61,759 nt of DNA. Source: Desulfobaccales bacterium. GTDB lineage: Bacteria > Desulfobacterota > Desulfobaccia > Desulfobaccales > 0-14-0-80-60-11. The position numbers and the translations under genes are program-made. How positions within the stretch are numbered: position 1 is the stretch's first letter; each line of letters starts with the position of its first letter. The notes under the pieces are model-generated. The model saw only the letters and a program-made list of their open reading frames with translations. It made no database searches and was not told the DNA's origin. The stretch spans positions 1-61,759 of the forward strand of contig JAUXZG010000084.1 in assembly GCA_030694005.1 (NCBI GenBank). The letters are read 5' to 3'. Below are positions 3,829 to 55,593 of the stretch, one piece after another.

Positions 3829-3838
3829 TAACCCTCCC

Positions 3839-4477: not shown

Positions 4478-4488
4478 AAATTCACCTC

Positions 4489-6423: not shown

Positions 6424-6450
6424 CTTTTCCTCCTGTGGCCAGGCAGACGA

Positions 6451-13400: not shown

Positions 13401-14688
13401 GCGCATCGATAATCACAGCCAGGGCTTCTTGCGGGAATAAGCCTTTCAGGTCATTCATGATTCTATTGATTACCGCGACCCCGATGATCTCGCCGCGGTC
13501 GTCCCGCACCGGAAAGCTGGTGTAGTAGCCCAGTTCTCCGGAGGTCACCCCCAAAGCCCAATAGCTGCCCTTGGCCCCCTGCAAGGCTTGCCGGTAGTAG
13601 GGGCGGCACGCATAGGACTTGCCCAGGAAACTGTCCGGAGCCAAGCGGTTGGAAGAGGCGACGGTCAGACCCTCCCGGTCCAGCACATACATGATGGCGC
13701 ACGGCAGGGAGGCGTGCTGCTGGTCCAGGACTGCATTGGCCTGGTCGAGGTTCTGCGAAGTGCGGGAGGCCAGGTAGGAGATAATCCCCGGACAGCCGGC
13801 CAGGGCGGCCACCAGGTGATCGGCTTCCGTCATCTTATCCGTCAGGGAGACTTCCAGCACTTGGCCGTGGTGCTCTTGATCAGTCCTTACTTCCCTGGCG
13901 GCGGCGCGGCCGAGATATTGGGTGACGCACCAGCCGGTGATCACCAGGACCAGGACGCTCACCACGGTTCCCACCATCAGGTTGCGCCCCCACTTCTGGA
14001 GGCGGCTCTGCTTCTCTCGGCCCAGGGAGGCCACGGCAAACAACGAGAGACAGGCGCTGAGGCCGACGGCCAGAAAACCGCGCCCCAGTTGGATGGGCAC
14101 GCCCGTTGCGGCCAGGAAGACCTCGGTGTTGAGCCACGAGGCGGGGAAAAACGGGGCGGGGTCCACCACCAGGCCGGCAGCCGCGGCATAGCCGGCCAGG
14201 CAGAGGGCCGCACCCTGGAGAGCGCCCCGGCCTGGGGCGGCGCGGGGGGCGGCCTGCCATAACGCGACCGCGGCCCCCAAAGCGCCCACCAGCCCCAGGG
14301 AATAACGGGCTGACGCCCGGACGCCGGGAAGGCCGGCGAAGGCTCCCAACAGGGCCAACCCCAGGAGTACGGCCAGGACCCAGCGCCCCGGACCGCGGCC
14401 CCGGAGCATGATCAGGCCGGCTCGCCCGAATTCCGCCAGCAGCAGAAAAGACAGGATCAGCAGGCCCAGCCTGACCACATCAAAAACGGCATCAGTCCCC
14501 AGGCTCAGGGCCACCAGGTCCAGCCATTCCAGCAGCCCGTGGGTGGCCCCGAACAGCAGCAGCCACATCCAGGGGAGCGAACTCCGGGGTCGGCGGTGCA
14601 GATACAGGCAGATGGGCAAGAGGAGGAAAAACCCCAGCCCGTAAACGAAGTAAATGAAATCTATCTGGCCCCTGAGAAAATCAGTCAT
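10453..14688 (-). CDS. Multidomain membrane sensor diguanylate cyclase (TM region, Cache-like periplasmic domain, several PAS, GAF, GGDEF)
   Basis: 1411-aa ORF. It has multiple N-terminal hydrophobic helices and repeated PAS-like blocks. The C-terminus carries RAEDIPCRFGGEEF (an active GGEEF plus an RxxD I-site). Confidence 0.9.
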   Translation of the reverse strand: MTDFLRGQIDFIYFVYGLGFFLLLPICLYLHRRPRSSLPWMWLLLFGATHGLLEWLDLVALSLGTDAVFDVVRLGLLILSFLLLAEFGRAGLIMLRGRGPGRWVLAVLLGLALLGAFAGLPGVRASARYSLGLVGALGAAVALWQAAPRAAPGRGALQGAALCLAGYAAAAGLVVDPAPFFPASWLNTEVFLAATGVPIQLGRGFLAVGLSACLSLFAVASLGREKQSRLQKWGRNLMVGTVVSVLVLVITGWCVTQYLGRAAAREVRTDQEHHGQVLEVSLTDKMTEADHLVAALAGCPGIISYLASRTSQNLDQANAVLDQQHASLPCAIMYVLDREGLTVASSNRLAPDSFLGKSYACRPYYRQALQGAKGSYWALGVTSGELGYYTSFPVRDDRGEIIGVAVINRIMNDLKGLFPQEALAVIIDAHGVVTLTNRLDMHLKSLWPLSAAMREQLSASRQFGPGPFAPILEQAPGDGGDCRFQGRRYLVLRQPLPFQDWSIVILTSSRPIAVARMLGLSIAILSCLVVLSLLTTMGLTIESTLRVQRSENRFRQLYGNLRDGSAVVDLSGKIVEWNPAFQAMLGYPPEELVKLSHRDLTPETWREQEARIIAEQVLPRGYSDLYEKGYRRRDGSVLPVELQTYLVQDDGGQPSVMWVFVRDLTTRKQIEDNLLEEKLFSDTTIDSLPGIFYLFDEQGRFLRWNENFERATGYSAEEFAGMHPLDFFGGEDKKKIDEKIREVFVTGESAAEADLISKDGSKTPYIFTGLRVILDGAPYLIGTGTDITQRRQAEEALRESEQKYRLLLANIPAVVFTGYADWAVDFLDDKVEEITGYSKEDFNARRLKWSDIVLAEDLNPIKEIFLEALKSTRAYVREYRIRAKNGEVHWVRERGRIFCDPQGRIDQVNGVFSDITAHKRVEQELEQLREQQEMILQAAGEGIFGLNRQGEVTFANPAAAAMIGYELRELVGRPMHDLIHHTREDGTPHLREDCPVYAALQSGETHRVSDDFFWRKDGQGFPVEYTATPVMDRGQTVGTVVVFKDITRRRRDEEALARVNDHLRRMVAETEERHRTMSLLKDVDDVLQSCHTAEEAYAAISLSAAKLFPDDSGALYLLNSSQTYFEAVAAWGESPPAEAVFAPDDCWSVRRNRLHLVTASHPELPCRHITDSWSGDYLCVPMMMQREAPGVLHVRLGPPRTLGLTAEELKTQAESRLQLAVIVAEHLGLSLANLKLRETLRHQAIRDPLTGLFNRRYLEETLDRELHRVKRQGIHLGVVMIDLDHFKQYNDNFGHNAGDELLVALGNLILSLVRAEDIPCRFGGEEFLLIIAGASLEVTLGRTEQLRLGVKQLHEQHPGKFLHPVTISAGVAVFPGHGESADVLIRAADAALYQAKREGRDRVVAADVDSA

Positions 14689-14867: not shown

Positions 14868-16673
14868 CTACTCGAACTTGAACCCTTTCTCGGTGAATAA
14901 CTTGAGGCAGGCATCCACCACCTCGGGTTCATAGAGGATGCCCTTATTCTTGGTGATTTCCTCCAGGGCCGCCTCAATCCCCAAGGCCGGCCGGTAAGGC
15001 CGGTGGGAACTCATAGCTTCCACCACGTCGGCCACCGCCAGGATGCGGGCCTCCAGGGTAATATCGGGGCCGGTCAGTCCCTGGGGGTAGCCCGAACCGT
15101 CCATCCGCTCGTGGTGCTGCAGGATAGCCTCGGCCACCGGCCAGGGGAACCGGATTTCTTTGACAATCTCGTAACCGGCCTGGGCATGGGATTTGGTGAG
15201 GCCAAATTCCGTGTCGCTTAATTTCCCCGGTTTGCTGAGAATCTCGGCCGGGGTGCTGATCTTGCCCAGGTCATGGAGCAATCCCATCACCCAGAGGCCG
15301 GCCACCCGGTCGGCTGAGAGCCCCAGTTCCCGGCCCACGGCGCAGGCAAGTTGGGTGACCCGGCGCTGATGCCCGGCGGTGTAGGGGTCCCGCGCTTCGG
15401 TGACCGTGGCCAGGGCCTGAATGGTGCCGTACTGGACTTCCGTTGTCCTGGCCAGGCTTTCCTTTAACGCCTCCTCGGCCTGTTTCTTTTCGGTCAGGTC
15501 CCGCCAGAGGCAATGGAGTACGGTCTTCCCTCGATACGTAATCGCCGTAAGCGAAACTTCGACGGGGAAGTCCTCGCCTCCGGCCTTGCGGTGTATCCAT
15601 TCGAACCGATGGTAACCTTTCTCGAAGGCGGCTTTTATCATCTCACCGGCCTTCTCAAACGAACTGCGCCCATCGGGCTGCTCCGGCGGAGACAACTCCG
15701 AAGGGGGGGTCATCAGGAGGTCATCCCGGCTGGAATATTCGAGCATGCGAACGGCGGCTTCGTTGCAGTCCACGAACGTTTCGCCATCGATCAGCATTAT
15801 GGCGTCCTCGGAAGCGTACAGGACGTCCATGAATCGCTTCTCACTTTCCTCTATCGCCGCCTCCGTCTGCTGGCGATCGGTGATATCCCGGGCGATGGAC
15901 AGCACCGCGGGCCGGCCCCGGAGGTCCATCAAGCGGCTGCTGCACTCGGTGGGGATAATCCGCCCGTCCCGGGTGACGAGCTCCGTCTCAAACACGAGGT
16001 GGCCCGTGGCCCGGAGTTGTTCCAGGATCTCAGCCCGCCGGGCGACATACTCCGGAGAGGTCACATCGCGCCCGGTAAGGTTCAGCAATTCGTCCCGGGT
16101 ATAGCCCAGAAGGCGGCAGGCCTCCTCATTCACCTCCAGCAGGCGTCCTTCCAGGTTGTTGATGAAGATGGCATCCCCGGCGGTTTGGAACAGGGTCCGG
16201 TAGCAGTGTGCCGCGTCCCGCAATTCTTGGGTGCGTTCCCGGACCGTCTCTTCCAGGTGGTCCCGCTCCCGGCGGAGGGCGTTCTCCGCGGCCCGGAGCC
16301 GCAGCATGACCCTGAGCTTGGCGGCCAGTTCGACATTGTCGATGGGCTTGGCGATGAAGTCGTCGGCCCCGGCTTCCAGCCCCTGGGCCTTCAATTCGGG
16401 GGTGGCCCCGTGCGCGGTCACCAGGATGACGTGGACGGACGCGGTCCGGGGATCGGCTTTGAGCCGGCGGCACATCTCGATGCCGTTCATGCCCGGCATC
16501 TGTACGTCGATGAGGGCGCCGTCGACGGCCTCGGACGCGGCCAACTCCAGGCCGGCCTCAGCGCTTGGCGCGGCCAGCAGCTTGATGTCTGGCAGATAGG
16601 CCGCCAGCAACTGCTCCAGGACGAAGAGGTTGTCGGGTCGGTCCTCCAAGACCAGGAGTACCGGAACGGTCAT
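14868..16673 (-). CDS. Response regulator receiver - PAS - PAS - HD-GYP phosphodiesterase
   Basis: Track ORF 14868-16856. The start is set at ATG 16673 (MTVPVLLVLEDRPDN, GAAGGAG Shine-Dalgarno). It has a receiver Asp pocket (LIDVQMPGMNG), HDLGK, and HHERMDGSGYP. Confidence 0.88.
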   Translation of the reverse strand: MTVPVLLVLEDRPDNLFVLEQLLAAYLPDIKLLAAPSAEAGLELAASEAVDGALIDVQMPGMNGIEMCRRLKADPRTASVHVILVTAHGATPELKAQGLEAGADDFIAKPIDNVELAAKLRVMLRLRAAENALRRERDHLEETVRERTQELRDAAHCYRTLFQTAGDAIFINNLEGRLLEVNEEACRLLGYTRDELLNLTGRDVTSPEYVARRAEILEQLRATGHLVFETELVTRDGRIIPTECSSRLMDLRGRPAVLSIARDITDRQQTEAAIEESEKRFMDVLYASEDAIMLIDGETFVDCNEAAVRMLEYSSRDDLLMTPPSELSPPEQPDGRSSFEKAGEMIKAAFEKGYHRFEWIHRKAGGEDFPVEVSLTAITYRGKTVLHCLWRDLTEKKQAEEALKESLARTTEVQYGTIQALATVTEARDPYTAGHQRRVTQLACAVGRELGLSADRVAGLWVMGLLHDLGKISTPAEILSKPGKLSDTEFGLTKSHAQAGYEIVKEIRFPWPVAEAILQHHERMDGSGYPQGLTGPDITLEARILAVADVVEAMSSHRPYRPALGIEAALEEITKNKGILYEPEVVDACLKLFTEKGFKFE

Positions 16674-17174
16674 GATCCCTACTCCTTCAGGGTAGTATTC
16701 AACTAGCGGCGGAGGCTGTCTTTTTTTCTCAGGGTAAGTACTTATGTGACCGTGAAAATCCGTCGAGCCGATGAGAAGCTTGGCGCAAAACTCCGTCCCC
16801 AGGCAGGAGCCTGGGAACGAGAGAAAAAAATGCCGGGGCGCACCATAAAGCTTCACCTGATGAATTGCTCATCGGATTTTTGCCTATTCTGCTGAAATTC
16901 TGCAATGGACCTTTAAGCCTCCTCATCCCCCGGGGCGGGCCCATCGTCAGGTTTGCTGTGGTCCAACAACCCCCAGGAGCGCAGTTCCCCTAAGATTCCC
17001 GGCAGGGCGCCGGCCAGGCCCTGGGCCAGCTGGCAAAAAAATTATGGTGGAAAGAAAAATGGATGGATAGCAGGCTATCTTGCCAAAACCGAAACTTCTC
17101 AAAAAATCTGGAAAATTCTTGATATGATCGGCATATCCAAGTCGGCGAATTCCATACTTTTCAAAGAGGTGAAT

Positions 17175-19312: not shown

Positions 19313-20170
19313 TTACGCCACCAGGGCCAGATTTTGGAGCAATGGCCGGGGGTCCACCAGGTGGCGGACAAACCACTCCTCGTAATCCTTGGCGCCCAGG
19401 GCCAGGGCCAGAACTTCCGAAAAGTGGAAGACGGGAAGCCTCTCCCTGGAGGTGCAACGGATCTCCAGATTGAGCTGGCACATGGCACAGGCGGTGACCA
19501 GACAATGGGCCTTGGCAGCCACGGCGCTGTCGATGATTTCGTTGACCAGGGGGGTGACTATTTCCGGGTCGGTGGCGGAAAGAAAGGAGCCGCAACAGCG
19601 ATGCGTATAAGCCCCGATGATGGGCTCGGCCCCCAAGGCCACCAGAATATCTTCCATTTCGCCCTGGTAATATTTTTCCTTTTCCAGATCCGGGGGGCGA
19701 AACACGGCACAGCCGTAATAGGGCACAAACTTAAGACCCGTAAGGCTCCGTTTGGCGCTCTGTTTCAGGCGGTCCAATCCGAACCGCACCAGCACCTCCA
19801 TAAAGTGCATGATTTTCAAGTCCAAATTGATCGGCCGTCCCCAACGCTCTTCTAAAGAACGGTGGGTTTCCGGATCCTTCTTGAGACAGACCTTGGCATG
19901 CCGCAAATAATGCAGGCAGCGGGGGCACATGGCCACCAGGGGTCTGCCGGCCGGGGCCAGGGACAGGTTGCGGGCCGCCATTCCCAGGCTTAAATTCTTG
20001 CACATGGTTTGCGCGGAGGAGGAGCCGCAGCAGTTCCAGTCGGAAAGTTCGATGAGGTTCAGGCCCAATATTTTGGCAGACTGCATCAGGGACATATTGG
20101 CTTCCGCGGCCGTAGTGGCCATGGAGCAGCCCGGGAAGTATGAGAAGTCAATCTGGTGGTGAAGGCTCAT
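19313..20170 (-). CDS. hdrB: Heterodisulfide reductase subunit B-like (two CCG domains)
   Basis: 285-aa ORF with FPGCS...NCCGSSSA...YYGCAV...CCGSFL...CAMCQLNLE. Confidence 0.88.
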   Translation of the reverse strand: MSLHHQIDFSYFPGCSMATTAAEANMSLMQSAKILGLNLIELSDWNCCGSSSAQTMCKNLSLGMAARNLSLAPAGRPLVAMCPRCLHYLRHAKVCLKKDPETHRSLEERWGRPINLDLKIMHFMEVLVRFGLDRLKQSAKRSLTGLKFVPYYGCAVFRPPDLEKEKYYQGEMEDILVALGAEPIIGAYTHRCCGSFLSATDPEIVTPLVNEIIDSAVAAKAHCLVTACAMCQLNLEIRCTSRERLPVFHFSEVLALALGAKDYEEWFVRHLVDPRPLLQNLALVA

Positions 20171-20763
20171 TTAGACTCCCTCCAGTAGCACTTGAAAAGG
20201 TCGCCGATCTCTTCTTGGGCTTGCACCCGTGACGGCCTCAGGTCCAGCTTGCGCTTGGCCAGCATCTTGAGACCCACGTCCAGATCACTGAGCCAGCGTC
20301 GGGTTTTCACCTTGTAGCGCCACATGATCCCCAGTTTATGGGCGCGACCGTAACGTTCCAGGGACCTGAGCACTTCCTCGTGGAAGTCAAGGATGTTGGG
20401 CTTGGCTATGGCTACCCCTTCCTCCACCGCCATCAGGCGCAAGGTATCCATCACGGCCGCCATGTCGATGCCCATGGGGCACTGGCTGGAACAGGTATGA
20501 CAGCCTACGCAGATCCAGATGGTTTTACATCTCAGGACTTCCTCCCGCATGCCGAACTGCAGCAGGCGCAGGACCAGGTTGGGAGGATAATCCATGGCCC
20601 GGATGAAAGGACAGCCATTGGCGCAGGCGTGGCACTGATAACACCGATTTAGGTCGGTGCCGCTTTTCTCGATAACCTCGGCCGCCAGAAAACCCCGAGG
20701 TTGGCCAACTTCAATAACCGTCCTGGGGGCGGCCGGTTTTGCCAGGGGGGTGGTTTGGCTCAT
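20167..20763 (-). CDS. hdrC: Heterodisulfide reductase subunit C-like (2x[4Fe-4S])
   Basis: 198-aa ORF with CYQCHACANGCP and CVGCHTCSSQCP. It overlaps hdrB by 4 nt. Confidence 0.85.
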   Translation of the reverse strand: MSQTTPLAKPAAPRTVIEVGQPRGFLAAEVIEKSGTDLNRCYQCHACANGCPFIRAMDYPPNLVLRLLQFGMREEVLRCKTIWICVGCHTCSSQCPMGIDMAAVMDTLRLMAVEEGVAIAKPNILDFHEEVLRSLERYGRAHKLGIMWRYKVKTRRWLSDLDVGLKMLAKRKLDLRPSRVQAQEEIGDLFKCYWRESK

Positions 20764-30348: not shown

Positions 30349-30415
30349 TATTCAACTAAATATTCACCAAAGCCCGTTTAAAAAATGCCAACCAAGGCTA
30401 ACCCCTTGAAATATC

Positions 30416-30493
30416 TGGCGCGCCCGAGAGGATTCGAACCTCCGACACACGGATTCGTAGTCCGTTGCTCTATCCAGACTGAGCTACGGGCGC
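30416..30493 (-). tRNA. tRNA-Arg (anticodon ACG), CCA encoded
   Basis: GCGCCCG TA GCTC AGTCTGGATA GAGC A ACGGA CTACGAA TCCGT GTGTC GGAGG TTCGAAT CCTCT CGGGCGC G CCA. All four stems are perfect. Confidence 0.95.
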
Positions 30494-30599
30494 GGGTGAA
30501 ATTTAGCGGTTGTGGGGAATTGGCCCCGAAGTTTTGATTAATATTTTTTATAACCCCTGGGGCCTGAAAGGTCAACTCCTTATCCACCCGGGACCAGCG

Positions 30600-30760
30600 C
30601 CACCCTGCCCCCTTCCCCAAAACCGCCTCAAAAACCCCTTCTAGATTTTTGGGGTGGGAAAGCGGGGCCGAAGGCCCCGCCTTACCCACCCCCCTTAAAG
30701 GGTTGGGAGGGGGGTTTGGGGGGAGGGCAGGGAGCCGCGCTCCCTGGCCCTCCCCCCAAA
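30600..30760. repeat. Cluster of G/C-tract palindromic repeats
   Basis: Hairpin 1: GGGGTGGGaaaGCGGGGCCgaaGGCCCCGCcttaCCCACCCC (30651-30692). Hairpin 2: GGGAGGGCAGGGAGC..GCTCCCTGGCCCTCCC (30721-30754). The CCCCTTAAAGGGTTGGGAGGGG motif is shared with the 60.4-kb cluster. Confidence 0.7.
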
Positions 30761-30770
30761 GACCCAACGA

Positions 30771-31359
30771 ATGATGTAAGAAGGGCAGGCGGATGATCAG
30801 GAGGAAGCCGTTTATGGACAGCAGGGTTCCCAGGCAGGCGGCCACCAAAGCGAAGTAAAAAACCGGCCGGGAAGAGGAGAGAATGGCGATGGAGGCCATG
30901 ACGATGGCGATCTGCAGCAGGACCTCGGCGTAGTCAAAGTAGGGGTCCTTGCTGCGGTTGAGGTCCCGCTCGTGTTCCAGCTTCGTGGCCTCTTTTTCGA
31001 TCTCCTCCTTTTCGACGCGGTAACGTGCCTCCTCCTTAACCATCTGCTGCAATAATGCCTCGTACCGTTTCTTGGCTTCCGGCTTTAAGGATTCCGACCT
31101 TTCCAGAAGATCAAGTTCAATCCGCAGCTTCTGACCCCGATAGAAATGCTCCCGGGTGGCCTTGGCCTGATAAAAAGCCCATTGGTCCGAAGCCTGCTGT
31201 TGGGCCAGGAGCATCTCCTTCATGGCGTTATTCCCCCCCAGGGAGGTGATGGCCAGCAAGACCGCGAATGATAGCGGTGGTGAGGGCCACGCGCCGGGTA
31301 AAGGTTTTTGCCTTTTCTTCCCCGAGTTCTTCAGGGTTGGGAAGCTCAATCTCGGCCAT
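30771..31359 (-). pseudogene. DUF4337-like membrane protein gene, frameshifted near the 5' end and lacking a native stop
   Basis: ATG 31359 (AGGAGA Shine-Dalgarno) encodes MAEIELPNPEELGEEKAKTFTRRVALTTAII and then stops at 31228. The family-like remainder (AVLLAITSLGGNNAMKEMLLAQQQASDQWAFYQAK...) is in the +1 frame (track ORF 30378-31412). That frame runs on through the repeats and the tRNA-Arg gene. Confidence 0.55.
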
Positions 31360-31618
31360 GACGGTTCATCTCCTGAAGAAAGTAGCAGTCGCCAGAGCGC
31401 CAGAAAAACCACAAAACGAGGCTGAGACTAACTAAGGCCCCTAAATAGGCATCACTTTTTACCTGGAAATAACCCTTTCATATGAATCTTGCGATGGTAA
31501 AAGAACGGATTGTGCCAATAGTGGTAAAAAGAGATGGCCATGTAATCTGTCACCGACTCAGGCAGGAATAGTCAATTAAAAAATAAAAATCTGGGGACGA
31601 CTCACTAACCCTGATTTT

Positions 31619-36898: not shown

Positions 36899-39061
36899 TC
36901 AGGCCCCACCGGCAACCTCGCGGATAAACCGGTAGATCTCCGGAGAGACCGAAGTGAAGCGGACGGCGGCTTCGTTAAGGTTGTCGGCCCCGGGCTTCAC
37001 GGAGATGATCTTGGCATAGATTTTCCCAGGGATTTCTTGCCCGGTGTCATCCAGTAAATGGAGGCGGACATCTTCCCATTCTTCCAGGTCTCCCTCAAAG
37101 GCCACCGTGGCGGCGATTTCCGACAGATGGGTGATCCAGGCGGCCCCGGAAGCACCGGTGACGACCTTTTCTTTAATCCGGTAGAGGTGGATGGGGAGCT
37201 TCTGCGCCAGGGGGATGAGGGTTTCCGACCTCTCTTTAAGTCTGAGTTGGTAAGGCCCCTTAAGACCCTGCACCTCATAAATGGTGACCACTCCGGACAC
37301 GCCTTTCATCTCCGCCTGGATAATTTCGCCCACCTCTACCAGGTCTTTGATCTGTTCGTAGGTGGAGGAACTGATGAGCACCTGGCCGCCCACGGCATAA
37401 GAGTCGATCCTGGCGGTGAAGTTTACGTGGGAGCCCACCACGCTGTATTTGGTGCGCCGCTCCGAGCCGATGTTGCCCACCACCACTTCGCCGGTGTTCA
37501 CCGAGACGCCCATCTCCAGATGCGGCAGGCCATCGGCGGCGTTCAAGGCGTTGATCTCTTCCATGGCGATTTGCATCTGCAGGGCACAGGCCACCGCCCG
37601 GGCGGGATGGTCTTCCAGGGGCTCCGGGGCGCCGAAAAAGGCCAGAATCCCGTCGCCGATAATCTCATCGATGATGGCCCTGCTGTCTAAAAGAATCTCG
37701 ATCATCTTGCCCAGGTAACGGTTCAGAAAGGTGATCACCGCCTCCGGTTTCATATCCGCGGTGATGGCGGTGAAGCCCCTTAAGTCGGACATGAGGATGG
37801 TGACTTCCCGGATCTCGCCCCCCATTTCCAGGGCATCTTTGGATTCCAAAAGCCTTTTCACCACTTCTTGGGTGACATAACGGCCGAAGGTGTCCCGGAT
37901 GAAATCCCGTTTTTCCATATATTCCGTGAGTTGTTGGCCTAACTGGTTGAAGGAGTGGGCCAGGTGGACGATCTCTTTGCTGCCGGTCTCAGGCACCGCC
38001 ACCGAAAAGTCACCGTGACCGATGGCAGAGGTCTTCTCGGCCAGAATTTTCAGCGGCCGGGCGATGCTTCTGGAAATATAAATGATCATTAAGGCCAAAA
38101 ACCCCAACCCCAGTAGGGCCATAAGGATAAGTTTGGTGCTCAACCGGCGGGCGTCGGCGAACAATTCGTCTTCCGGAAAGATCACCGCCAGGGTCCAACC
38201 CAGGGAAGGCAGGGGGGCATAATACAGCCGGGATTTTTTTCCGGAAACAAAGTCCAGGAGGGGGACAAAGCCTTCCCCGCCGCGGATCATGTCCCGGCCG
38301 AGCCGGCGCAGGTGGGGGTCGCTCTTGGCCTCGGCGATGCTGAAAATACTTTCCCGCATGATCAACCCGCGCTCGGGATGGGTGACGAACACCCCGTTTT
38401 GGGAGATGAGAAAGGCGTACCCGGTCTGATAGAATTTCACCCCGGCCACCAGGTCTTTGAGCCACATCAGGGAAATATCGCAGGTGACCACCCCCCGGAA
38501 CTTTTTGCCGCCGGAAACTTTCCGATAGAAGGGCACGGAAAAAGTGGACATGATGATGTTGCCGCCCCCTTCATCATAGTAAGGTTCACTCCAGATGGGG
38601 CGGCCTAATTCCTGGGGGATTTGATACCAATCCGTGCCGAAATAGCGATAAGAGTCACTCCCCAAAATTTCCAGCTTGATCCCACCGTCGTGTCGAGAGG
38701 CATAGGGGGCGAAATAATATTTTTTAAGGTCAAAGGCGTAGGGTTGAAAGGCGACACAGACCCCGAACAGTTCGGGGTTGTCGCCCACCATGACCTGTAT
38801 CAATTGGCACAGTTCCGGGCGGACCAAAGGATGTTGTTCGATGGTGCGGGCCAGGCTGCGGGGGATTTTCTCGGCCCCATGCAGAACTACTTCAATTTTG
38901 TAGGCCGTGGCCCGGGTCAGGTTCCTGGCGTTCTCTGCCGCCTCATCTTCCATCCCCTGCGTAGAAGCGCGGTAGTTATAGGTGAACACGGCCAGAAAAA
39001 TGATGGCGGTGCCGGAGAGAATCAAAATAATGAGTTTAGTAGCCAGGCTTCTATTTTTCAT
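36899..39061 (-). CDS. Cache-sensor / HAMP / class III nucleotide cyclase with a conserved C-terminal domain (paralog 1)
   Basis: Track ORF 36899-39094. The start is set at ATG 39061 (MKNRSLATKLIILILSG). It has a periplasmic Cache-like region, HAMP, and a cyclase core (ILMSDLRGFT...IDEIIGDGILAFFGAP...VNTGEVVVGNIGS...YSVVGSHVNFTARI). Confidence 0.88.
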   Translation of the reverse strand: MKNRSLATKLIILILSGTAIIFLAVFTYNYRASTQGMEDEAAENARNLTRATAYKIEVVLHGAEKIPRSLARTIEQHPLVRPELCQLIQVMVGDNPELFGVCVAFQPYAFDLKKYYFAPYASRHDGGIKLEILGSDSYRYFGTDWYQIPQELGRPIWSEPYYDEGGGNIIMSTFSVPFYRKVSGGKKFRGVVTCDISLMWLKDLVAGVKFYQTGYAFLISQNGVFVTHPERGLIMRESIFSIAEAKSDPHLRRLGRDMIRGGEGFVPLLDFVSGKKSRLYYAPLPSLGWTLAVIFPEDELFADARRLSTKLILMALLGLGFLALMIIYISRSIARPLKILAEKTSAIGHGDFSVAVPETGSKEIVHLAHSFNQLGQQLTEYMEKRDFIRDTFGRYVTQEVVKRLLESKDALEMGGEIREVTILMSDLRGFTAITADMKPEAVITFLNRYLGKMIEILLDSRAIIDEIIGDGILAFFGAPEPLEDHPARAVACALQMQIAMEEINALNAADGLPHLEMGVSVNTGEVVVGNIGSERRTKYSVVGSHVNFTARIDSYAVGGQVLISSSTYEQIKDLVEVGEIIQAEMKGVSGVVTIYEVQGLKGPYQLRLKERSETLIPLAQKLPIHLYRIKEKVVTGASGAAWITHLSEIAATVAFEGDLEEWEDVRLHLLDDTGQEIPGKIYAKIISVKPGADNLNEAAVRFTSVSPEIYRFIREVAGGA

Positions 39062-40037
39062 GGGAGGCCAGACAGTTAACGAAAAATTCGGCAAAAGGGG
39101 GAATCTTCTTAATCAGACCGTTTTTCCTGAGCTCTTGCGCCGCCGGGTCATACGCCTCTGCCTGAAGAGTCCCCATGGGGAGGTTGCTTCCGGAAGGCAA
39201 GATGATGTCCTGCATGCGTGCCAGCATCCATTTCTGGTGGACCCTCTCGGTGGCGACATTGGCGGCGTTGACATATTTCATGACAATATCCAGGGCTTCT
39301 TCAGGATGGGCAAAGGCATACTGCCAGCCTGCAATGCTTGCCTGGACAAAGCTGCGGCAAAGTTCGGGTCGGTTCTTATAGGTATCCTCCAGGCAATAAA
39401 TGCCGTCTTCGGGAAAGTTCAGGCCATGGTCGGCCATGAAAAAAGTGGTCAGTTCCTCCGGATTCATCCCGGCATTGAGGATCAGGTGGTACTCGTTGTA
39501 CCACATAGCGGAGGCCACCTCCACGCCACCTCGCAAAAACAGGTTCAAGGTGGCTGATTGGGGGATGGTTTTCACGGCAAGCTGGTATTTTTGGAAAAAG
39601 GCCCGGGGCTGACCCTGAAAGTCCCCTCCCCAAAGCCCCACCTTCTTGCCGTTAATATCTTGGGGGGTGTTGATGCCGCCGGCCTTCTTGGCCACCAGCA
39701 TCAGGGCCGACCGTTGCACCAATTGGCCGATATTGACCAGCTTGACTCCCTGCGCCCGCTTAATAATCCCCGTGGTAAGCAGCCTGGTCCCGAAATCGGC
39801 CTTCCCTTGCGCCAGCAATTCGGACGGCGGCCGATCAGGCCCCCCTCTAAGGATCCGCACGTCCAGGTTGTGCTGCCGGTAGAAACCTTTTTCATAAGCC
39901 ACATAATAGCCCGCGAACTGGGATTGCGGCTGCCATTGGGGGATGAAAGAAACCTTTTTAAGGTCGGCTTCCTGAGCAAATCCGAGGGGCGGAAGCAATA
40001 GAAAAAGGCTGAGGCTGAAACTTAAAAGGCGCGTCAT
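39051..40037 (-). CDS. Orphan periplasmic substrate-binding protein (NMT1/THI5, NitT/TauT-like)
   Basis: 328-aa ORF with a signal peptide (MTRLLSFSLSLFLLLPPLGFAQ) and FIPQWQPQSQFAGYYVAYEKGFY. No permease or ATPase gene is adjacent. Confidence 0.8.
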   Translation of the reverse strand: MTRLLSFSLSLFLLLPPLGFAQEADLKKVSFIPQWQPQSQFAGYYVAYEKGFYRQHNLDVRILRGGPDRPPSELLAQGKADFGTRLLTTGIIKRAQGVKLVNIGQLVQRSALMLVAKKAGGINTPQDINGKKVGLWGGDFQGQPRAFFQKYQLAVKTIPQSATLNLFLRGGVEVASAMWYNEYHLILNAGMNPEELTTFFMADHGLNFPEDGIYCLEDTYKNRPELCRSFVQASIAGWQYAFAHPEEALDIVMKYVNAANVATERVHQKWMLARMQDIILPSGSNLPMGTLQAEAYDPAAQELRKNGLIKKIPPFAEFFVNCLASHEK

Positions 40038-40177: not shown

Positions 40178-42139
40178 CTAAGCGTTGCCTCTTGCCTGGC
40201 GCATAATCTGGTGGGCCTCCCGGGAGATGGAGGTGAAGCGGACGGCGGCTTCGTGAAGGTTGTCGCCCAGAGGCTTCACAGAAATGACCTTACCGTAAAT
40301 CTTCCCCGGGATTTCGGCCAGGCTCTCATCCAGCAGGTGGATGCGGACATCTTCCCACTCCTTAAGTTCCCCCTCATAGACGACCGTGGCCCCAATCTCC
40401 GAAAGATGGGTGATCCAGGCGGCGCCGGTAGCGCCGGTGATAATCTTTTCGTGAATCCGGCAGAGGTGGATGTTGATCTTTTCCTTAAGGGGGATGAGGG
40501 TCTCAGACCTTTCTTTGAGTTTGATGTTATAAGGTCCTTTGATAGCATGAACATCATAAAGAGTGGCGGCCCCGGGAACGCCTTTCATCTCCACTTCGAG
40601 GACATCCCCCACCTCGACGAGGTCCTTAACTTTGGCATAGGTGGAGGCGCTGATGAGCACTTGCCCTCCCACCGAGGAAGATTCGGCTCTGGCGGTGAAG
40701 TTGACCGGGGATCCAATAACGCTGTATTTGGTTCTCTTTTCGGAACCGATGTTGCCCACCACCACCGAGCCGGTATTCACGCCGATGCCCATTTCCAGAT
40801 GGGGCAGGCCGTCGGCTTCGTTTAAGAAATTGATCTCATCCATGGCCGCCTGCATCTCCAGAGCGCAGGCCACGGCCCGCACCGGATGGTCTTCTTGGGG
40901 TTCCGGGGCGCCAAAGAAGGCCAGGAGGCCGTCGCCGACGATCTCGTCGATAACCGCATGATAATCAACCAGAATTTCGATCATTTTTCCTAAATAGCGG
41001 TTGAGAAAGATTATGACCTCCTCCGGAGCCATATCCGCGGTCAAGGCAGTAAAACCTCGAAGGTCCGACATGAGGATGGAAACTTCTCTGGTCTCACCCC
41101 CCAATTCCAGGGCTTCTTTGGATTCCAGGAGCTTTTTGACCACCTCCTGGGTGACATAGCGGCCAAAAGTGTCCCGGATGAAGTCCCGTTTAGCGATATA
41201 ATCCGTGAGCTGGTCGCCCAGTTGGTTGAAAGAATGCGCCAGATGCAGGATCTCTTTGGCGCCTTTCTCCGGCACCGCCACGGCAAAGTTCCCTTCTCCC
41301 ACCTGCCTCACCCCATTTCGCAGGCGCACCAGGGGGCGCGAAATGGTCGCGGCAAACCAGACGGCTGATAACCCGCCCAGCAGTGAGAAAAATATGGCCC
41401 CGATTAAACCGGCCAGGTGCACTTTTCGGTCAATTGCGGCAGAAGCCTCTTCCATAGACTCCTTGGCTTTGGCCATTATTCCCTGGGAGGCTTTTTTGAT
41501 CTCCTCTTGGGTTGGTACAAAAAACTCGTCGATGTTTACTATGGCCCCCACGATGAACGGGGTCCCGGGAACATGGACTCTGGCCGAAAACCTTCTCCGG
41601 TTTTTGCCGTCTTTGTCAAAGAAAGTGTAGTAGCCCGTGACATTGTCAGTGGTAAGGGAACGCTTGATCAACTTCCAGGTTTCCGGGTATTCTTTCTGCC
41701 ATTCTAATTTAGCCTGGTTTTGACCTTCGACCTGCTTATCGGGGTGGAAAATGATCTCGCCACCCTTGTCATATAAATCAGTGTACCCCGCCACCCCTTC
41801 CACCGTGGAGATGTCCTGGATAGCTATCTTTCTCAAGTTTTTATCCTGGCGCATTTGGGCATAATTATAGGTTTTTTTTCCTTTCAACAGATAAGCCAGC
41901 TCCCGGGCTACATCTTCGGCCTTGTCCTTGACGATGTATTCTCCATTTTTGGTCAGAACCTCTTCAGCCACCTGAACGTTGGCGGCGGTAACCTCTTGCA
42001 CCGCATTTTGGGCGATTTCCAAGTTATGGACGGCCATTTTGTGTTCGACCCAATCGGTTAACATTAACATGCCGAGAATCAGCAGCGCGATGAGGGCCGC
42101 ATAGGAAAGGCTCAGGTAGGTGCGAATACTCAGACTCAT
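40178..42139 (-). CDS. Sensor / HAMP / class III nucleotide cyclase with a conserved C-terminal domain (paralog 2)
   Basis: Track ORF 40178-42181. An ATG at 42139 is likely the true start. From HAMP to the C-terminus it is about 75% identical by eye to the 36899-39061 protein, but its periplasmic sensor differs. Confidence 0.88.
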   Translation of the reverse strand: MSLSIRTYLSLSYAALIALLILGMLMLTDWVEHKMAVHNLEIAQNAVQEVTAANVQVAEEVLTKNGEYIVKDKAEDVARELAYLLKGKKTYNYAQMRQDKNLRKIAIQDISTVEGVAGYTDLYDKGGEIIFHPDKQVEGQNQAKLEWQKEYPETWKLIKRSLTTDNVTGYYTFFDKDGKNRRRFSARVHVPGTPFIVGAIVNIDEFFVPTQEEIKKASQGIMAKAKESMEEASAAIDRKVHLAGLIGAIFFSLLGGLSAVWFAATISRPLVRLRNGVRQVGEGNFAVAVPEKGAKEILHLAHSFNQLGDQLTDYIAKRDFIRDTFGRYVTQEVVKKLLESKEALELGGETREVSILMSDLRGFTALTADMAPEEVIIFLNRYLGKMIEILVDYHAVIDEIVGDGLLAFFGAPEPQEDHPVRAVACALEMQAAMDEINFLNEADGLPHLEMGIGVNTGSVVVGNIGSEKRTKYSVIGSPVNFTARAESSSVGGQVLISASTYAKVKDLVEVGDVLEVEMKGVPGAATLYDVHAIKGPYNIKLKERSETLIPLKEKINIHLCRIHEKIITGATGAAWITHLSEIGATVVYEGELKEWEDVRIHLLDESLAEIPGKIYGKVISVKPLGDNLHEAAVRFTSISREAHQIMRQARGNA

Positions 42140-42202
42140 GGAGGTCTCCAAGACCTGTCGTCTTAATAAATTGTTTCCCAAAGGGAAAATTCGCCCGGGC
42201 GA

Positions 42203-42433: not shown

Positions 42434-42724
42434 AATTAAAGTAATGGGAAATCAAAATGTCGAATGATATATATACAAGGAATAGAAAGAATTTTCTTCC
42501 TCTCAAAAAATGGTCTTTTTTTCTATGGAATTGGCGACAGTCCCTGAGGGTTGTCTGCGGCAAGGCAAAAACCTGCCAACAAGACCGTCATCGCGACGGC
42601 CAACCGTAAAACCACTGCCTTCTTCATCTGTGTTTTCTCTGTTTATCGATGATTAAATCAGCTTGTGGTGTTTGTTTTGTGCTAATTATTATGTACTTTT
42701 CACAAATTGCGTCAAGTCTAATTG

Positions 42725-42764
42725 GAGAAAAAAGAAGGCCACCAGCTCAAACTTGCTGATGGCC
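42725..42764 (-). terminator. Intrinsic terminator of the 42798-43259 gene
   Basis: On the minus strand, GGCCATCAGC-aagtttga-GCTGGTGGCC is followed by TTCTTTTTTCT. Confidence 0.7.
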
Positions 42765-51217: not shown

Positions 51218-52030
51218 TTACATCGGCTTGGTCTGCAGGGTGGATTCCTCTCCCAAAACCTTCCAGGGAGAAACCGCGGTGGGTGAGCCGGTCTCGTAGT
51301 CGAACAGGTCTTTCACCAGAGCGTTGGCCTTTTTATAGAGCACCCTTAAAGGGATGTCCGCCGGGCAGGCCTCTTCACACAGGCCGCAGTCGATGCAGCG
51401 CCCGGCCATGTGGATGGCCCGCACCAGCTGGAAGATGGTGTCCGGCGGCACCATGCCGGTGCTCATCAAATCCGGGTGCTCCAGGCTGCACTCTTTGCAG
51501 AAGCACATGGGGCAGACGTCCCGGCAGCCGTAACATTTGACGCAGCGCCCAAAATGGCCCAGCCACTCCTTCAAGGCGTCCGCCTCGGCCAGGCCCTCCA
51601 CGCGGGTCACCCGCTGGCTTTGGGGCACCGGCCGGCATTTTTCCCCATAATCAATAACCGAGGGGAAAGGGCCGGAGCATTCGCAATAATCGGCCTGGTC
51701 CTGCGGGCAGGCGACCCCCACCAGGACCACCTGGTCCGGGTCCAACTGCCCCCATTTATACAGCTCGATGAGCCCCCGCTCGTCGCAGCCCCGCACCTGG
51801 ATGGCGAAGGTTTCTTTAGGGTAGCGGGCCGCCACCTGCAGGAGCAGCTTGTCCAGAGGGTAGCGGGCGTCCCCCGGGGGCACGATGGCTTCGTCCACCT
51901 CGCTTAAGCGGTCCTTCGTAAAGAAGTGGGGTAGGGGATGGCCCTCCACCATCTTGTAGCCGATATAGCCGCCGGCCTTGCCTTCCGCCAACAGTTTCCG
52001 GACCTTGTCGCGTAACCTTTCCATGGGCAT
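51218..52030 (-). CDS. 4Fe-4S dicluster protein associated with HdrA/MvhD (AsrA / sulfhydrogenase-beta-like, tentative)
   Basis: 270-aa ORF with CVKCYGCRDVCPMCFCKEC and CIDCGLCEEACP. It is the last gene of the hdrA-mvhD operon. Confidence 0.65.
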   Translation of the reverse strand: MPMERLRDKVRKLLAEGKAGGYIGYKMVEGHPLPHFFTKDRLSEVDEAIVPPGDARYPLDKLLLQVAARYPKETFAIQVRGCDERGLIELYKWGQLDPDQVVLVGVACPQDQADYCECSGPFPSVIDYGEKCRPVPQSQRVTRVEGLAEADALKEWLGHFGRCVKCYGCRDVCPMCFCKECSLEHPDLMSTGMVPPDTIFQLVRAIHMAGRCIDCGLCEEACPADIPLRVLYKKANALVKDLFDYETGSPTAVSPWKVLGEESTLQTKPM

Positions 52031-52062
52031 TTATCCTTTGAGAACTATCTGGGAGTCCTGCT

Positions 52063-52494
52063 TTAAGCCGCCCGGGCCGCCTGTTTCAGGGGGGAGGGGC
52101 CCATTTTCTGGATCTTGGCGGTGAAGTCCCGCACCGTCTGGGCGAATTTGGGGCCTTCGGCGGCGGAGATCCAATCCAGGTGCAGCCTGCCTTCCTCCAT
52201 GCCCACGAACTTCATGAGGTCCTGGAGGAAGCGCATGCGCTTGATGGTCATGTAATTGCCTTTAAGATAATGGCAGTCGCCGATATGGCAGCCGCCGATG
52301 AGGACGCCGTCGGCCCCCTTTTGGAAGGCCCGCAGTACATGGTGCGGCGATACCGACCCGGAGCACATTACCCGGATGACCCGAATGTGGGGAGGGTATT
52401 GCAGACGGCTGACGCCGGCCAGGTCGGCGCCGGCGTAAGTGCACCAGTTACACAGAAATGCCAGGATTCTGGGTTCAAAATTGCTGTCGGCCAT
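52063..52494 (-). CDS. mvhD: MvhD-like hydrogenase/Hdr-associated [2Fe-2S] subunit
   Basis: 143-aa ORF with ILAFLCNWCTYAGADLAG...VMCSGSV...LIGGCHIGDCHY. Confidence 0.9.
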   Translation of the reverse strand: MADSNFEPRILAFLCNWCTYAGADLAGVSRLQYPPHIRVIRVMCSGSVSPHHVLRAFQKGADGVLIGGCHIGDCHYLKGNYMTIKRMRFLQDLMKFVGMEEGRLHLDWISAAEGPKFAQTVRDFTAKIQKMGPSPLKQAARAA

Positions 52495-52530
52495 CTTTCG
52501 TCCCTTGGTTTTTAAGTTGAGTCTTAAGCT

Positions 52531-55500
52531 TTAACCGGCTGCTTCTTCAGAAAGGGCCTGGTCCACTTGCGCATAGATCTGCTTGTGGCTGAACCCTAAC
52601 AGGGTGATGCATTCCGACGGGCAGGTGGCGGCGCAGGTGCCGCACCCCTTGCACAGGGCCTGGTTCACTTCGGCCACAGCCTCGTCTTCCTTGTAGGTAA
52701 TGGCCCCAAAGGGGCAAACCTCCACGCAGGCCTGGCAGCCCGAGCACAGCATGGGGTCCACAATAGCCACCACGCCCCCGGCCCTAATCGACTCCTGGGA
52801 CAGGATCACCGCGGCCCGGGCCGCCGCGGCCTTGGCCTGGGCGATGGACTCGTCAAGGGGTTTGGGGTAATGGGCCAGGCCGGCGACAAACACCCCTTCG
52901 GTGGCGAAATCCACCGGCCTGAGCTTCATATGGGCCTCCAGGAAGAAGCCTTCGTTGTTCAAGGGCACCTTGAACATCTTGGCCAGCTTTTCCTGGTCCT
53001 TGACAATGATGGCGGAGGCCAGGGTCAGGACCTCCGGGTGGATGCTGATGGGCAGGCGCAGGACATGGTCCAGCACGGTCACCTTAAGCCCGCCGTCCGC
53101 GGTCTGTTCCACCTTGGGCTTGCTGTCCAGGTCAAAGCGGATGAACATGACCCCTTTTTCCCGGGCTTCCTTGTAAAGGTTTTCCCGCAGACCGTAGGTG
53201 CGCATATCCCGATAGAGGATATATACGTCCATGTCCGGGTTGAGCTCTTTGAGCTTGACGGCGCTTTCCACCGAGTGGGTGCAGCACACCCGGCTGCAAT
53301 AGGGCCGCTCCGGCTCCCGGGAGCCCACGCACTGGATGAACACCGCGCTCTTGGCCCCCATGACCAGGGGGTTCTTCTCCCGCATGGCCTGATCCATCTC
53401 CAGGGCGAGAAACACCCGGGGATTTTCTTTGTAGAGATATTCCGTGGGCTTGTAGGGATGGCCGCCGATGGCGATGACCGCGGTGCCGTGCTCCACCGCG
53501 GTGTCCCGCCCCTGGGTGGTGACGGTGGACTTGAAATTGCCCACAAAGCCCGTAACCTCGGTGAGTTCGGAGTTGAGGTGCACCTCGATCTTGGGGTGGT
53601 TGGTCACCCTTTTTACCAACTTGTCCACGAAAGGCTTGATGGCCTCCCCGGTCCAGGCGTGGTTGAGCTCCAAGGCGTGGCCGCCCAAGAAGTCCTTTTT
53701 CTCCACCAGATGCACCTTGAAACCCTGGTCGGCCAACCCGAGGGCCGCTTCCATACCCGCCACGCCGCCACCGATGACCAGGCCGACCTTGGTGATGGGC
53801 AGGCTGAACTCCACCAGGGGCTGCTGCAGGGCCACCTTGGAGACGGACATGCGCACCTGGTCCTTGGCCCTCTTGGTGGCGAGCTCGGGCACGTCCATGT
53901 GGACCCAGGAGCCCTGGTCCCGAATGTTGGCCAGCTCAAAGAGGTATCTGTTCAGCCCGGCTTCTCTCAAGGTCTCCTGGAAGAGGGGTTCGTGGGTGCG
54001 GGGCGTACAGGAAGCCACCACCACCCTATTCAGGTGGTGCTCCTTGATGCGCTCCTTGATAAGCTCCTGGGTGTCCTGGGAGCAGGAGAACAGGTTGTTT
54101 TCCACATACTCCACAAAGGGCAGGGTCTTGGCGTAATCCCGCACCGCCTCCACGTCAATGACCCCGGCGATATTGATGCCGCAGTGGCAGACGAAGACGC
54201 CGATGCGCGGCGGTTCCTGGGAAACATCTCGCTCGGGGAATTCCGGTTTTTTGCGGGCCAGGGAAAAGCGGGCCGCGGTAAGAAGTGCGCTGGCCGCCGA
54301 AGCCGAGGCCGACGCCTCCATCACCGACTGGGGGATGTCCTTGGGTCCCTGGAAGGCGCCGCAGACAAAGACGCCGGGGCGGGAGGTGGACACCGGCGTA
54401 AAGGGCGAGGTCTGGGCAAACTTGTTGGTATTCAGGTCCACGCCCAGGGTGCGGGCCAACTCCATAACATCCGGGGAGGTTTCCAAGCCCACGGACAGGA
54501 CCAACATGTCAAAGACTTCATCCTTGATGTTGCCTTCTTCGTCAATATAGCGGATCTGGACATCGTCCGTGCCCGGCACCGGGTCCACGGTGTGGATGCG
54601 GGAGCGCACGAAGCGGACGCCTTGTTCCTCTTCGGCCCGCCAGTAATATTTCTCAAAGTCCTTCCCCATGGTGCGCATGTCCATGAAGAAGATGGTGGCC
54701 TCCAGGCCGTTCTTGCTGTGCTCCTTGGCGATCACCGCCTCTTTGATGGCATACATGCAGCACACCGCGGAACAGTGGCTGTTGTCGCAGCGATGCAGGT
54801 CCCGGGAGCCCACGCACTGGAGCCAGGCAACCTTCTTGGGTTCCTTGTGGTCCGAGGGCCGCACCAGGTGGCCTTCAAAGGGGCCGGAGGCGGACAGGAT
54901 GCGCTCGAACTCCATACTGGTGACGACATTGGGAAAAGCCGTGTAATGATAGGAGGCGTAAGGGGTGGGATCAAATATCTTGAAGCCCGGGGCCAGGATC
55001 ACCGCGCCCACCTGGATGTCCCGCTCTTTGTCCTGGTCGTCGAAGACCACCGCGCCGGTGGGGCAGAACTTTTCGCAGGCCTTGCATTTGCCGCCCTTCT
55101 TGAAGTAAAGGCAGGTGGCGGCATCAATGGCGTATTTGAGCGGCACCGTCTGGGGATACAGCACATAGGCCGATTTCCGGGGGGCCAGGCCCTGGTTGAA
55201 TTCATCGGGCACCTTTTTGGGGCACTTCTGGGCGCAGATGCCGCAGGCGATGCACTTGGCCGGGTCGATATAGCGGGCCGGCTGCTTCACCTTGACGGTA
55301 AAATTGCCCGGCTCGCCGCTGATCCCCTTAACCTGGGCCGGGGCCAGGATTTCGATGTTCAAATGGCGGCCGCATTCCACCAGCTTGGGGGACAGGATGC
55401 ACATGGAACAGTCGTTGGTGGGGAAGGTCTTGTCCAGCGCGGCCATGACCCCGCCGATGCCGGTTTGCTTCTCCACCACATAGACATAGAAACCGGAGTT

Positions 55501-55593
55501 GGCCAGGTCCAGGGCCGCCTGCACTCCGGCGATGCCCGCGCCCACCACCATCACCGCGCCTACGGGTTTACTTCCCTGCTTTTTTGCGCTCAT
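52531..55593 (-). CDS. hdrA: Large HdrA-like FAD/Fe-S oxidoreductase (two tandem HdrA-type modules, C-terminal 2x[4Fe-4S])
   Basis: 1020-aa ORF with [46 protein letters not shown], a second Rossmann motif (VIGGGVAGMEAALGLADQG), and CSGCQACVEVCP...CKGCGTCAATCP. Confidence 0.9.
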   Translation of the reverse strand: MSAKKQGSKPVGAVMVVGAGIAGVQAALDLANSGFYVYVVEKQTGIGGVMAALDKTFPTNDCSMCILSPKLVECGRHLNIEILAPAQVKGISGEPGNFTVKVKQPARYIDPAKCIACGICAQKCPKKVPDEFNQGLAPRKSAYVLYPQTVPLKYAIDAATCLYFKKGGKCKACEKFCPTGAVVFDDQDKERDIQVGAVILAPGFKIFDPTPYASYHYTAFPNVVTSMEFERILSASGPFEGHLVRPSDHKEPKKVAWLQCVGSRDLHRCDNSHCSAVCCMYAIKEAVIAKEHSKNGLEATIFFMDMRTMGKDFEKYYWRAEEEQGVRFVRSRIHTVDPVPGTDDVQIRYIDEEGNIKDEVFDMLVLSVGLETSPDVMELARTLGVDLNTNKFAQTSPFTPVSTSRPGVFVCGAFQGPKDIPQSVMEASASASAASALLTAARFSLARKKPEFPERDVSQEPPRIGVFVCHCGINIAGVIDVEAVRDYAKTLPFVEYVENNLFSCSQDTQELIKERIKEHHLNRVVVASCTPRTHEPLFQETLREAGLNRYLFELANIRDQGSWVHMDVPELATKRAKDQVRMSVSKVALQQPLVEFSLPITKVGLVIGGGVAGMEAALGLADQGFKVHLVEKKDFLGGHALELNHAWTGEAIKPFVDKLVKRVTNHPKIEVHLNSELTEVTGFVGNFKSTVTTQGRDTAVEHGTAVIAIGGHPYKPTEYLYKENPRVFLALEMDQAMREKNPLVMGAKSAVFIQCVGSREPERPYCSRVCCTHSVESAVKLKELNPDMDVYILYRDMRTYGLRENLYKEAREKGVMFIRFDLDSKPKVEQTADGGLKVTVLDHVLRLPISIHPEVLTLASAIIVKDQEKLAKMFKVPLNNEGFFLEAHMKLRPVDFATEGVFVAGLAHYPKPLDESIAQAKAAAARAAVILSQESIRAGGVVAIVDPMLCSGCQACVEVCPFGAITYKEDEAVAEVNQALCKGCGTCAATCPSECITLLGFSHKQIYAQVDQALSEEAAG

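Follow-up and report, generated by a model that had tools for sequence, protein, structure and literature searches.

Two paralogous genes on a 61,759-nt contig of a Desulfobaccales bacterium (GenBank assembly GCA_030694005.1, contig JAUXZG010000084.1; this whole stretch is called the window below) encode predicted class III nucleotidyl cyclases with the residues of guanylate cyclases (GCs). We consider it probable that the products of cycA (36899–39094, minus strand) and cycB (40178–42181, minus strand) are active, signal-regulated GCs of the Cya2 family and form 3',5'-cGMP from GTP. By their sequences they join this known family as a large uncharacterised Desulfobaccales branch and are not new in kind. 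Three features go modestly beyond what was known: a Ser/Ala variant of the active site, a Glu-Lys charge-swap signature, and the assignment of the C-terminal extension of Cya2 to a PilZ-fold domain specific to cyclases.

Open reading frames (ORFs) and Pfam matches predict for CycA a transmembrane helix, a dCache_1 domain, a second transmembrane helix, a HAMP domain, a cyclase-transducer element (CTE), the class III cyclase and a PilZ-like domain. CycB follows the same order, with a single-Cache-like periplasmic sensor between its transmembrane helices and FGRY in its CTE. The two proteins are paralogues, 55% identical (CycA 190–731 against CycB 107–667). Residues are numbered here from the TTG starts of the ORFs, which give lengths of 731 aa for CycA and 667 aa for CycB. 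These starts probably lie too far upstream: the orthologues and the position of the first transmembrane helix favour the ATG at 39061 for cycA (MKNRSL...) and the ATG at 42139 for cycB (MSLSIRTYL...; cycB orthologues begin MRLRTYL).

Base-specifying residues of the catalytic domains

The catalytic domains occupy residues 428–606 of CycA (37277–37813, minus strand) and 364–542 of CycB (40556–41092, minus strand), and their PF00211 (Guanylate_cyc) scores of 87.7 and 95.4 bits far exceed the curated cutoff of 21.9 bits. The catalytic region was searched with phmmer against all PDB sequences, and the resulting columns were rechecked in an independent MAFFT alignment. The top matches were 6FHT, a phytochrome fused to Cya2 E488K, and 2W01, Synechocystis Cya2 itself (E = 1.2e-58; 201 bits over the catalytic domain), followed by CyaB of P. 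aeruginosa (3R5G) and CyaC of Spirulina (1WC0/1WC1). Core identity in the MAFFT alignment is 50–51% to Cya2, 34–36% to CyaB and 31–33% to CyaC.

Class III adenylate cyclases pair Lys with Asp or Thr at the two base-specifying positions, and GCs pair Glu with Cys or Ser (PMC6005667, PMC7384201, PMC4215837). An earlier sequence-only reading of the window had placed Glu and Ser at these positions, had noted intact metal-binding Asp and Asn/Arg transition-state residues, and had proposed guanylate or other non-ATP cyclases on the rule that Lys with Asp or Thr specifies ATP and Glu marks GCs. The rule, with Glu plus Cys, Ser or Gly for GTP, agrees with Table 1 of PMC6005667 and with PMC7384201 and PMC4215837, and the residue assignments all held. 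Read directly on the minus strand, ATC GAT GAG ATT ATC GGC GAC GGG encodes IDEIIGDG of CycA, with Glu477 as GAG at 37664–37666, and AAA TAC AGC GTG GTG GGC encodes KYSVVG, with Ser551 as AGC at 37442–37444. The corresponding codons of cycB, also on the minus strand, are those of Glu413 at 40943–40945 (from ORF translation, MAFFT and residue mapping) and Ser487 at 40721–40723 (from MAFFT and residue mapping). In the HMMER alignments to PDB entries and in MAFFT, the Glu of CycA and CycB shares a column with E488 of Cya2 and with a Lys in CyaB, CyaC and, by engineering, 6FHT; their Ser stands opposite G562 of Cya2 and a Thr in CyaB and CyaC. The adenylate cyclase signature, Lys/Asp or Lys/Thr, is absent, with Glu in place of Lys in both paralogues.

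Residue mapping gave D437, R439, E477, D481, K549, S551, N558, A561, R562 and K597 in CycA and D373, R375, E413, D417, K485, S487, N494, A497, R498 and K533 in CycB. Both metal Asp residues, the phosphate-binding Arg and Lys, the ribose Asn and the transition-state Arg are intact: D437, R439, D481, N558, R562 and K597 of CycA align with D448, R450, D492, N569, R573 and K608 of Cya2, as do D373, R375, D417, N494, R498 and K533 of CycB. All eight canonical catalytic positions are kept in both paralogues and across the family.

Cya2 (sll0646 of Synechocystis sp. PCC 6803, 2W01), a homodimeric and biochemically proven GC, is the closest characterised relative. It shares with CycA and CycB the class III fold, the FGRY transducer element, a base-specifying Glu with a Lys two places ahead of the second base position, a small residue in that second position, identical residues for metal, phosphate, ribose and transition state, and a homologous PilZ-like extension of about 120 residues. 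It differs in having Gly where CycA and CycB have Ser, in having Tyr where they have Ala before the transition-state Arg (Ala561, codon 37412–37414, minus strand, in CycA; Ala497 in CycB), and in its CHASE2 sensor and cyanobacterial host, in contrast to the dCache or single-Cache plus HAMP sensors of the Desulfobaccales proteins. Unlike Cya2, these form a paralogous pair that flanks an orphan binding protein. The Glu/Gly pair of Cya2 goes with a strong preference for GTP (PMC6005667), and the single change E488K converts Cya2 and its fusions to adenylate cyclases with minor turnover of the other nucleotide (PMC5995499). Cya2 also serves as a source of cGMP in E. coli (PMC10127613).

The class IIIb adenylate cyclases CyaB (3R5G) and CyaC (1WC1) resemble CycA and CycB in fold, in catalytic residues and in having a hydroxyl at the second position (Thr there, Ser here), but they have Lys at the first position, Asp two residues before the second, only 31–36% identity and no PilZ-like tail. 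Eukaryotic GCs, among them sGC beta1 (E473/C541), rhodopsin-GC (E497/C566) and CYG12, share the pairing of Glu with Cys or Ser (PMC6005667, PMC7384201) but are far more distant (E = 1e-10 to 1e-15) and carry other regulatory domains. GcyA of R. centenum and XC_0250 (GuaX) of X. campestris are likewise bacterial class III enzymes that make cGMP. In enzymes of their type the transition-state Asn and Arg are replaced (by Leu and Ala in XC_0250) and Ala stands at a substrate-specifying position (PMC3770947); at these points, where the GcyA/XC_0250 type diverges, CycA and CycB are canonical.

Family conservation and the choice of substrate

The catalytic-plus-C-terminal region retrieved 5770 proteins at E ≤ 1e-10, nearly all of which, among those examined, bear Glu. 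The remark in the sequence-only reading that bacterial cGMP-forming cyclases are rare is thus correct for characterised enzymes and does not extend to sequences. Residues were counted in the best 120 of these homologues together with CycA and CycB. The 120 are 54–73% identical over the matched region, with the best database matches to CycA and CycB at 72–73%, and the named sources among them are metagenome-assembled genomes (MAGs) of Desulfobaccales, Syntrophobacterales and Desulfomonilaceae. The first base position is Glu in all 122 sequences; the second is Ser in 78, Gly in 43 and Ala in 1; and the position of the Cya2 Tyr holds Ser (65), Gly (50), Ala (6) or Phe (1). The residues that bind metal, ribose and phosphate hardly vary, nor do those of the transition state. 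Glu is also present in 51 of 51 cyclases from 39 related Desulfobaccales loci (47 with Ser and 4 with Gly at the second position), and with 122/122 and 51/51 it is therefore more than a chance or local accident. In the Cya2 neighbourhood (the best 120 matches to Cya2 plus CycA and CycB), Glu again predominates at the first position (Glu 114, Asp 5, Lys 2), the second position is G in 88, S in 17, T in 9 and A in 7, and the Tyr is kept in only 31 of 122. Because so few of these proteins have it, the Tyr appears to be a trait of one sub-clade, which may be cyanobacterial only.

The first base position covaries with the residue that lies two before the second. That residue is Lys in 236 of 236 sequences with Glu and Glu in 2 of 2 sequences with Lys; the Lys-type enzymes CyaB and CyaC have Asp there. 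In CycA the pair is K549/E477 and in CycB K485/E413. This charge swap argues that the Glu is an integrated feature of the active site under selection. The covarying Lys fits the “supporting Lys” that PMC6005667 describes for the specificity Glu of Cya2, and we infer that they are the same residue. To judge from these alignments, the Glu-Lys charge swap could be a better family signature for these GCs than the second base residue.

On these comparisons the two proteins would act as membrane-bound homodimers. As in Cya2 and in GCs of eukaryotes, the Glu would hydrogen-bond guanine at N1 and N2, held in place by the partner Lys, and the small Ser may provide room or a hydrogen bond for guanine O6. 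In rhodopsin-GC only the Glu contacts guanine canonically; for the second residue an effect of shape is assumed (PMC7384201). Signals from the periplasmic Cache-type sensors would reach the catalytic dimer by way of HAMP and the FGRY transducer element, and the PilZ-fold tail, which lacks the canonical cyclic di-GMP (c-di-GMP) motifs, may act as an intramolecular activator or regulator, as Cya2 suggests.

Several points weigh against assigning GTP as the substrate. Identity to Cya2 in the core reaches only about 50%, the Cya2 Tyr beside the transition-state Arg is Ala in both paralogues, and a check for cGMP effectors that the sequence-only reading had proposed found no cyclic nucleotide-binding (PF00027) domain in the roughly 50 ORFs scanned in the 61.8-kb window. 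In a reporter assay by Ryu et al. (Proteins 2015), at least one suspected bacterial GC reportedly acted like an adenylate cyclase. In Ma1120, the K101E/D157T and K101E/D157G mutants gained GC activity and still preferred ATP (PMC4215837), and the residue pair alone is therefore not fully predictive. It is accordingly conceivable, if in our judgement rather unlikely, that CycA and CycB discriminate weakly in spite of their Glu and are adenylate cyclases in the main or enzymes of dual specificity, with cAMP as a major or the main product. Such a reading would draw on the Ma1120 mutants and on the Ala at the place of a Tyr which, according to PMC4215837, makes Cya2 a much more active GC; in the same paper, addition of the Cya2-type Tyr made Ma1120 even-handed between the two substrates. 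It would draw as well on the similar affinity of Cya2 for both nucleotides, specificity being set during catalysis (PMC4215837, PMC7384201), and on the class IIIb enzymes as nearest adenylate cyclases, whose Thr the Ser resembles. Against this, hundreds of homologues keep both the Glu and its partner Lys without exception, which speaks for selection on a substrate without adenine; Glu versus Lys alone decides between GTP and ATP in the homologous Cya2 scaffold (PMC5995499); and the Tyr is missing from most of the Cya2 neighbourhood.

The “other non-ATP” part of the proposal in the sequence-only reading fared less well than the guanylate part, which is supported by a best characterised relative that is a proven GC. 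Pyrimidine cyclases of the Pycsar anti-phage type, making cCMP or cUMP, would be highly improbable here, and specific support for them is lacking. PADLOC PycC models do match both proteins (best 72–75 bits, E about 1e-21), but these matches reflect the generic class III fold and lie far below the Cya2 match to the same domain. CycA and CycB are built as Cache/HAMP membrane sensors, and no Pycsar effector (a cyclic nucleotide-binding domain fused to transmembrane or TIR parts) adjoins them; their neighbours are a substrate-binding protein, a major facilitator superfamily (MFS) transporter, asparaginyl-tRNA synthetase (AsnRS) and an extracytoplasmic function (ECF) sigma factor, in a block of chromosomal synteny that is vertically conserved in Desulfobaccales and is not a defence island. 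It is scarcely credible that the two proteins have lost catalysis or serve as cyclase-like sensors with a regulatory role only: the eight catalytic positions are complete in both and in the family, and inactivity is therefore very unlikely. Guanylate cyclase activity of the Cya2 kind remains the reading we favour for both.

A C-terminal domain with a predicted PilZ fold

Behind the cyclase each protein carries 122 further residues (CycA 610–731, 36902–37267; CycB 546–667, 40181–40546; both minus strand), and in an alignment of the family the CycB tail is 67% identical to that of CycA. Neither a Pfam family (E ≤ 0.1), the Pfam PilZ family included, nor an NCBIfam family matched this region. An AlphaFold2 model of CycA 610–731, built from a 42-sequence alignment, had a pLDDT of 87.5 and consisted of a beta-barrel followed by a helix. 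In a Foldseek search of the PDB, the top 24 matches to the model were all PilZ domains (TM-scores 0.52–0.63, E 2e-4 to 1e-2), among them Alg44, MotI, BcsA, PP4397, VCA0042, YcgR, MapZ and MrkH. Both c-di-GMP-binding motifs have degenerated. At the RxxxR site stands RLKER or KLKER, with little conservation across the family, and at the D/NxSxxG site a variable HLSEIA or HLSEIG. The modelled tail therefore has a PilZ fold but not the canonical c-di-GMP-binding signature (RxxxR, D/NxSxxG and a match to PF07238). With the c-di-GMP receptors PA4608, Alg44, YcgR and BcsA it shares a predicted barrel of six to seven strands and a C-terminal helix; they differ from it in their canonical motifs and Pfam PilZ match, and in that the tail stands almost exclusively behind Glu-type cyclases.

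A profile of the window domain was compared by hhalign with the extension of Cya2, taken from a Cya2-identical fragment with its native C-terminus (P0136, residues ~145–267), and matched it with a probability of 96% (E = 3e-9, 117 columns). A BLASTP alignment to the Cya2 fragment spans both cyclase and tail (38% identity over 259 aa, E = 1e-52). This homology indicates that the C-terminal extension of Cya2 is the same PilZ-like domain. The 118-residue extension of Cya2 is structurally uncharacterised, is important for stimulating the cyclase and affects the linker/CTE region (PMC5995499). A search of the literature brought up no relevant report of a link between Cya2 and PilZ or of a cyclase fused to PilZ.

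When 1.84 billion representative proteins were searched with a profile of the tail domain, 723 members were found at E ≤ 1e-3, and in them the domain is always C-terminal. PF00211 lies upstream in 33 of 35 long members, whose sensors include HAMP (10), REC (7) and dCache (5) as well as PAS, GAF, CHASE2 and protein kinase domains; Pfam PilZ is touched by only one of the 35, at 2.5e-4. Where the first base position is visible in tail-bearing cyclases it is Glu in 27 of 29. From these sequences, the domain appears to occur almost exclusively behind Glu-type class III cyclases.

Sensors, gene neighbourhood and significance

Pfam places dCache_1 at residues 50–304 and HAMP at 340–390 of CycA, and HAMP at 275–326 of CycB; in both proteins the periplasmic part lies between hydrophobic segments (at 17–47 and 253–281 in CycB). 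The periplasmic domain of CycB had no Pfam (E ≤ 0.1) or NCBIfam match. In an AlphaFold2 model of CycB 15–275 (pLDDT 83), a PAS-like alpha/beta core lies between two long helices, and the top Foldseek matches (E 3e-6 to 2e-4) were the WalK extracellular domain, TlpB, 2QHK/4EXO, Adeh_3718 and 5G4Y. The CycB N-terminal sensor (41357–42139, minus strand) is accordingly modelled as two transmembrane helices around a single-Cache/PAS-like periplasmic domain.

Between cycB and cycA lies a gene (39051–40037, minus strand) for a periplasmic NMT1/THI5 (SsuA/TauA-like) substrate-binding protein of 328 aa with a signal peptide (PF09084, E = 2e-42; also a weak SsuA_fam match in NCBIfam). It is an orphan, with no ABC permease or ATPase gene in its neighbourhood in the window, and its 3' end overlaps the start of cycA. 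A consensus scan upstream of cycB found, on the minus strand at 42688–42764, a terminator-like hairpin (42764–42737) followed by a promoter-like TTGACG-16-CATAAT (42715–42688), a possible if weakly marked start of a cycB–binding protein–cycA transcription unit. We scanned the GTDB set with one genome per species and found 39 related loci, all in Desulfobaccales, Desulfobacca or “delta proteobacterium” MAGs and at no more than 71% identity. The order AsnRS, cycB-type gene, NMT1 binding protein, dCache cycA-type gene, MFS transporter, ECF sigma factor, anti-sigma factor recurs in many of them, and the binding protein/cycA pair in about 25 of the 39. The coupling of this pair and its conservation in many Desulfobaccales MAGs suggest that the binding protein, translationally coupled to cycA, possibly helps in sensing. 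In some related loci an extra gene stands between the cycB-type gene and the binding protein gene; it is absent from the window and encodes a proline-rich secreted protein (4840–5577, plus strand, in locus L002; 9076–9981, plus strand, in locus L031), and was rejected as a cGMP effector.

A bolder scheme, which we put forward as a distinctly unlikely one, would make the PilZ-fold tail an allosteric switch. Through non-canonical binding of c-di-GMP, cGMP or some other guanine nucleotide it would tie the making of cGMP into the c-di-GMP network or subject it to feedback by its product, with the NMT1-type protein as a shared periplasmic co-sensor of the two cyclases; together these would form an undescribed cGMP module of anaerobic Desulfobaccales.

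Elsewhere in the window, about 22 kb from the cyclases, are genes for c-di-GMP turnover. A 1411-aa diguanylate cyclase with dCache, multiple PAS, GAF and GGDEF domains (10453–14688, minus strand) adjoins a REC-PAS-HD-GYP (HD_5) gene (14868–16856, minus strand). The GAF domain directly before GGDEF, read by eye, is a conceivable cyclic nucleotide input, and we make no claim that it binds cGMP. A DUF4337 ORF (30378–31412, minus strand) has its domain at residues 49–203 of 344 and about 140 residues beyond it; its 3' end overlaps a tRNA on the same strand (30419–30493, minus strand), so the tail of the ORF may be spurious. Rfam matches in the window were confined to two tRNAs, with neither a riboswitch nor any other RNA near the cyclase genes. 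Clusters of HdrA-like, MvhD (FlpD), NuoF/NuoE-like, CCG-domain and ferredoxin genes (1375–6906, 19313–20763 and 51218–55593, all minus strand) are typical of anaerobes with flavin-based electron bifurcation and agree with a Desulfobaccales-like origin. The G+C content of the window is 57%.

Characterised bacterial cGMP signalling comprises a handful of enzymes (Cya2, GcyA and XC_0250), and the Glu-bearing catalytic module of the Cya2 type now appears as a large and diverse family. The Ser/Ala variant of its Gly/Tyr offers a natural test of how the second shell tunes GTP selectivity, which bears on the engineering of Cya2-based optogenetic guanylate and adenylate cyclases, and recognition of the PilZ fold supplies a concrete structural hypothesis for the uncharacterised part of Cya2. 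The conserved cluster of an orphan binding protein and two cyclases is likewise of interest. For the organisms themselves, a conserved pair of Cache-sensor cyclases in Desulfobaccales would imply cGMP signalling in sulfate-reducing or syntrophic anaerobes.

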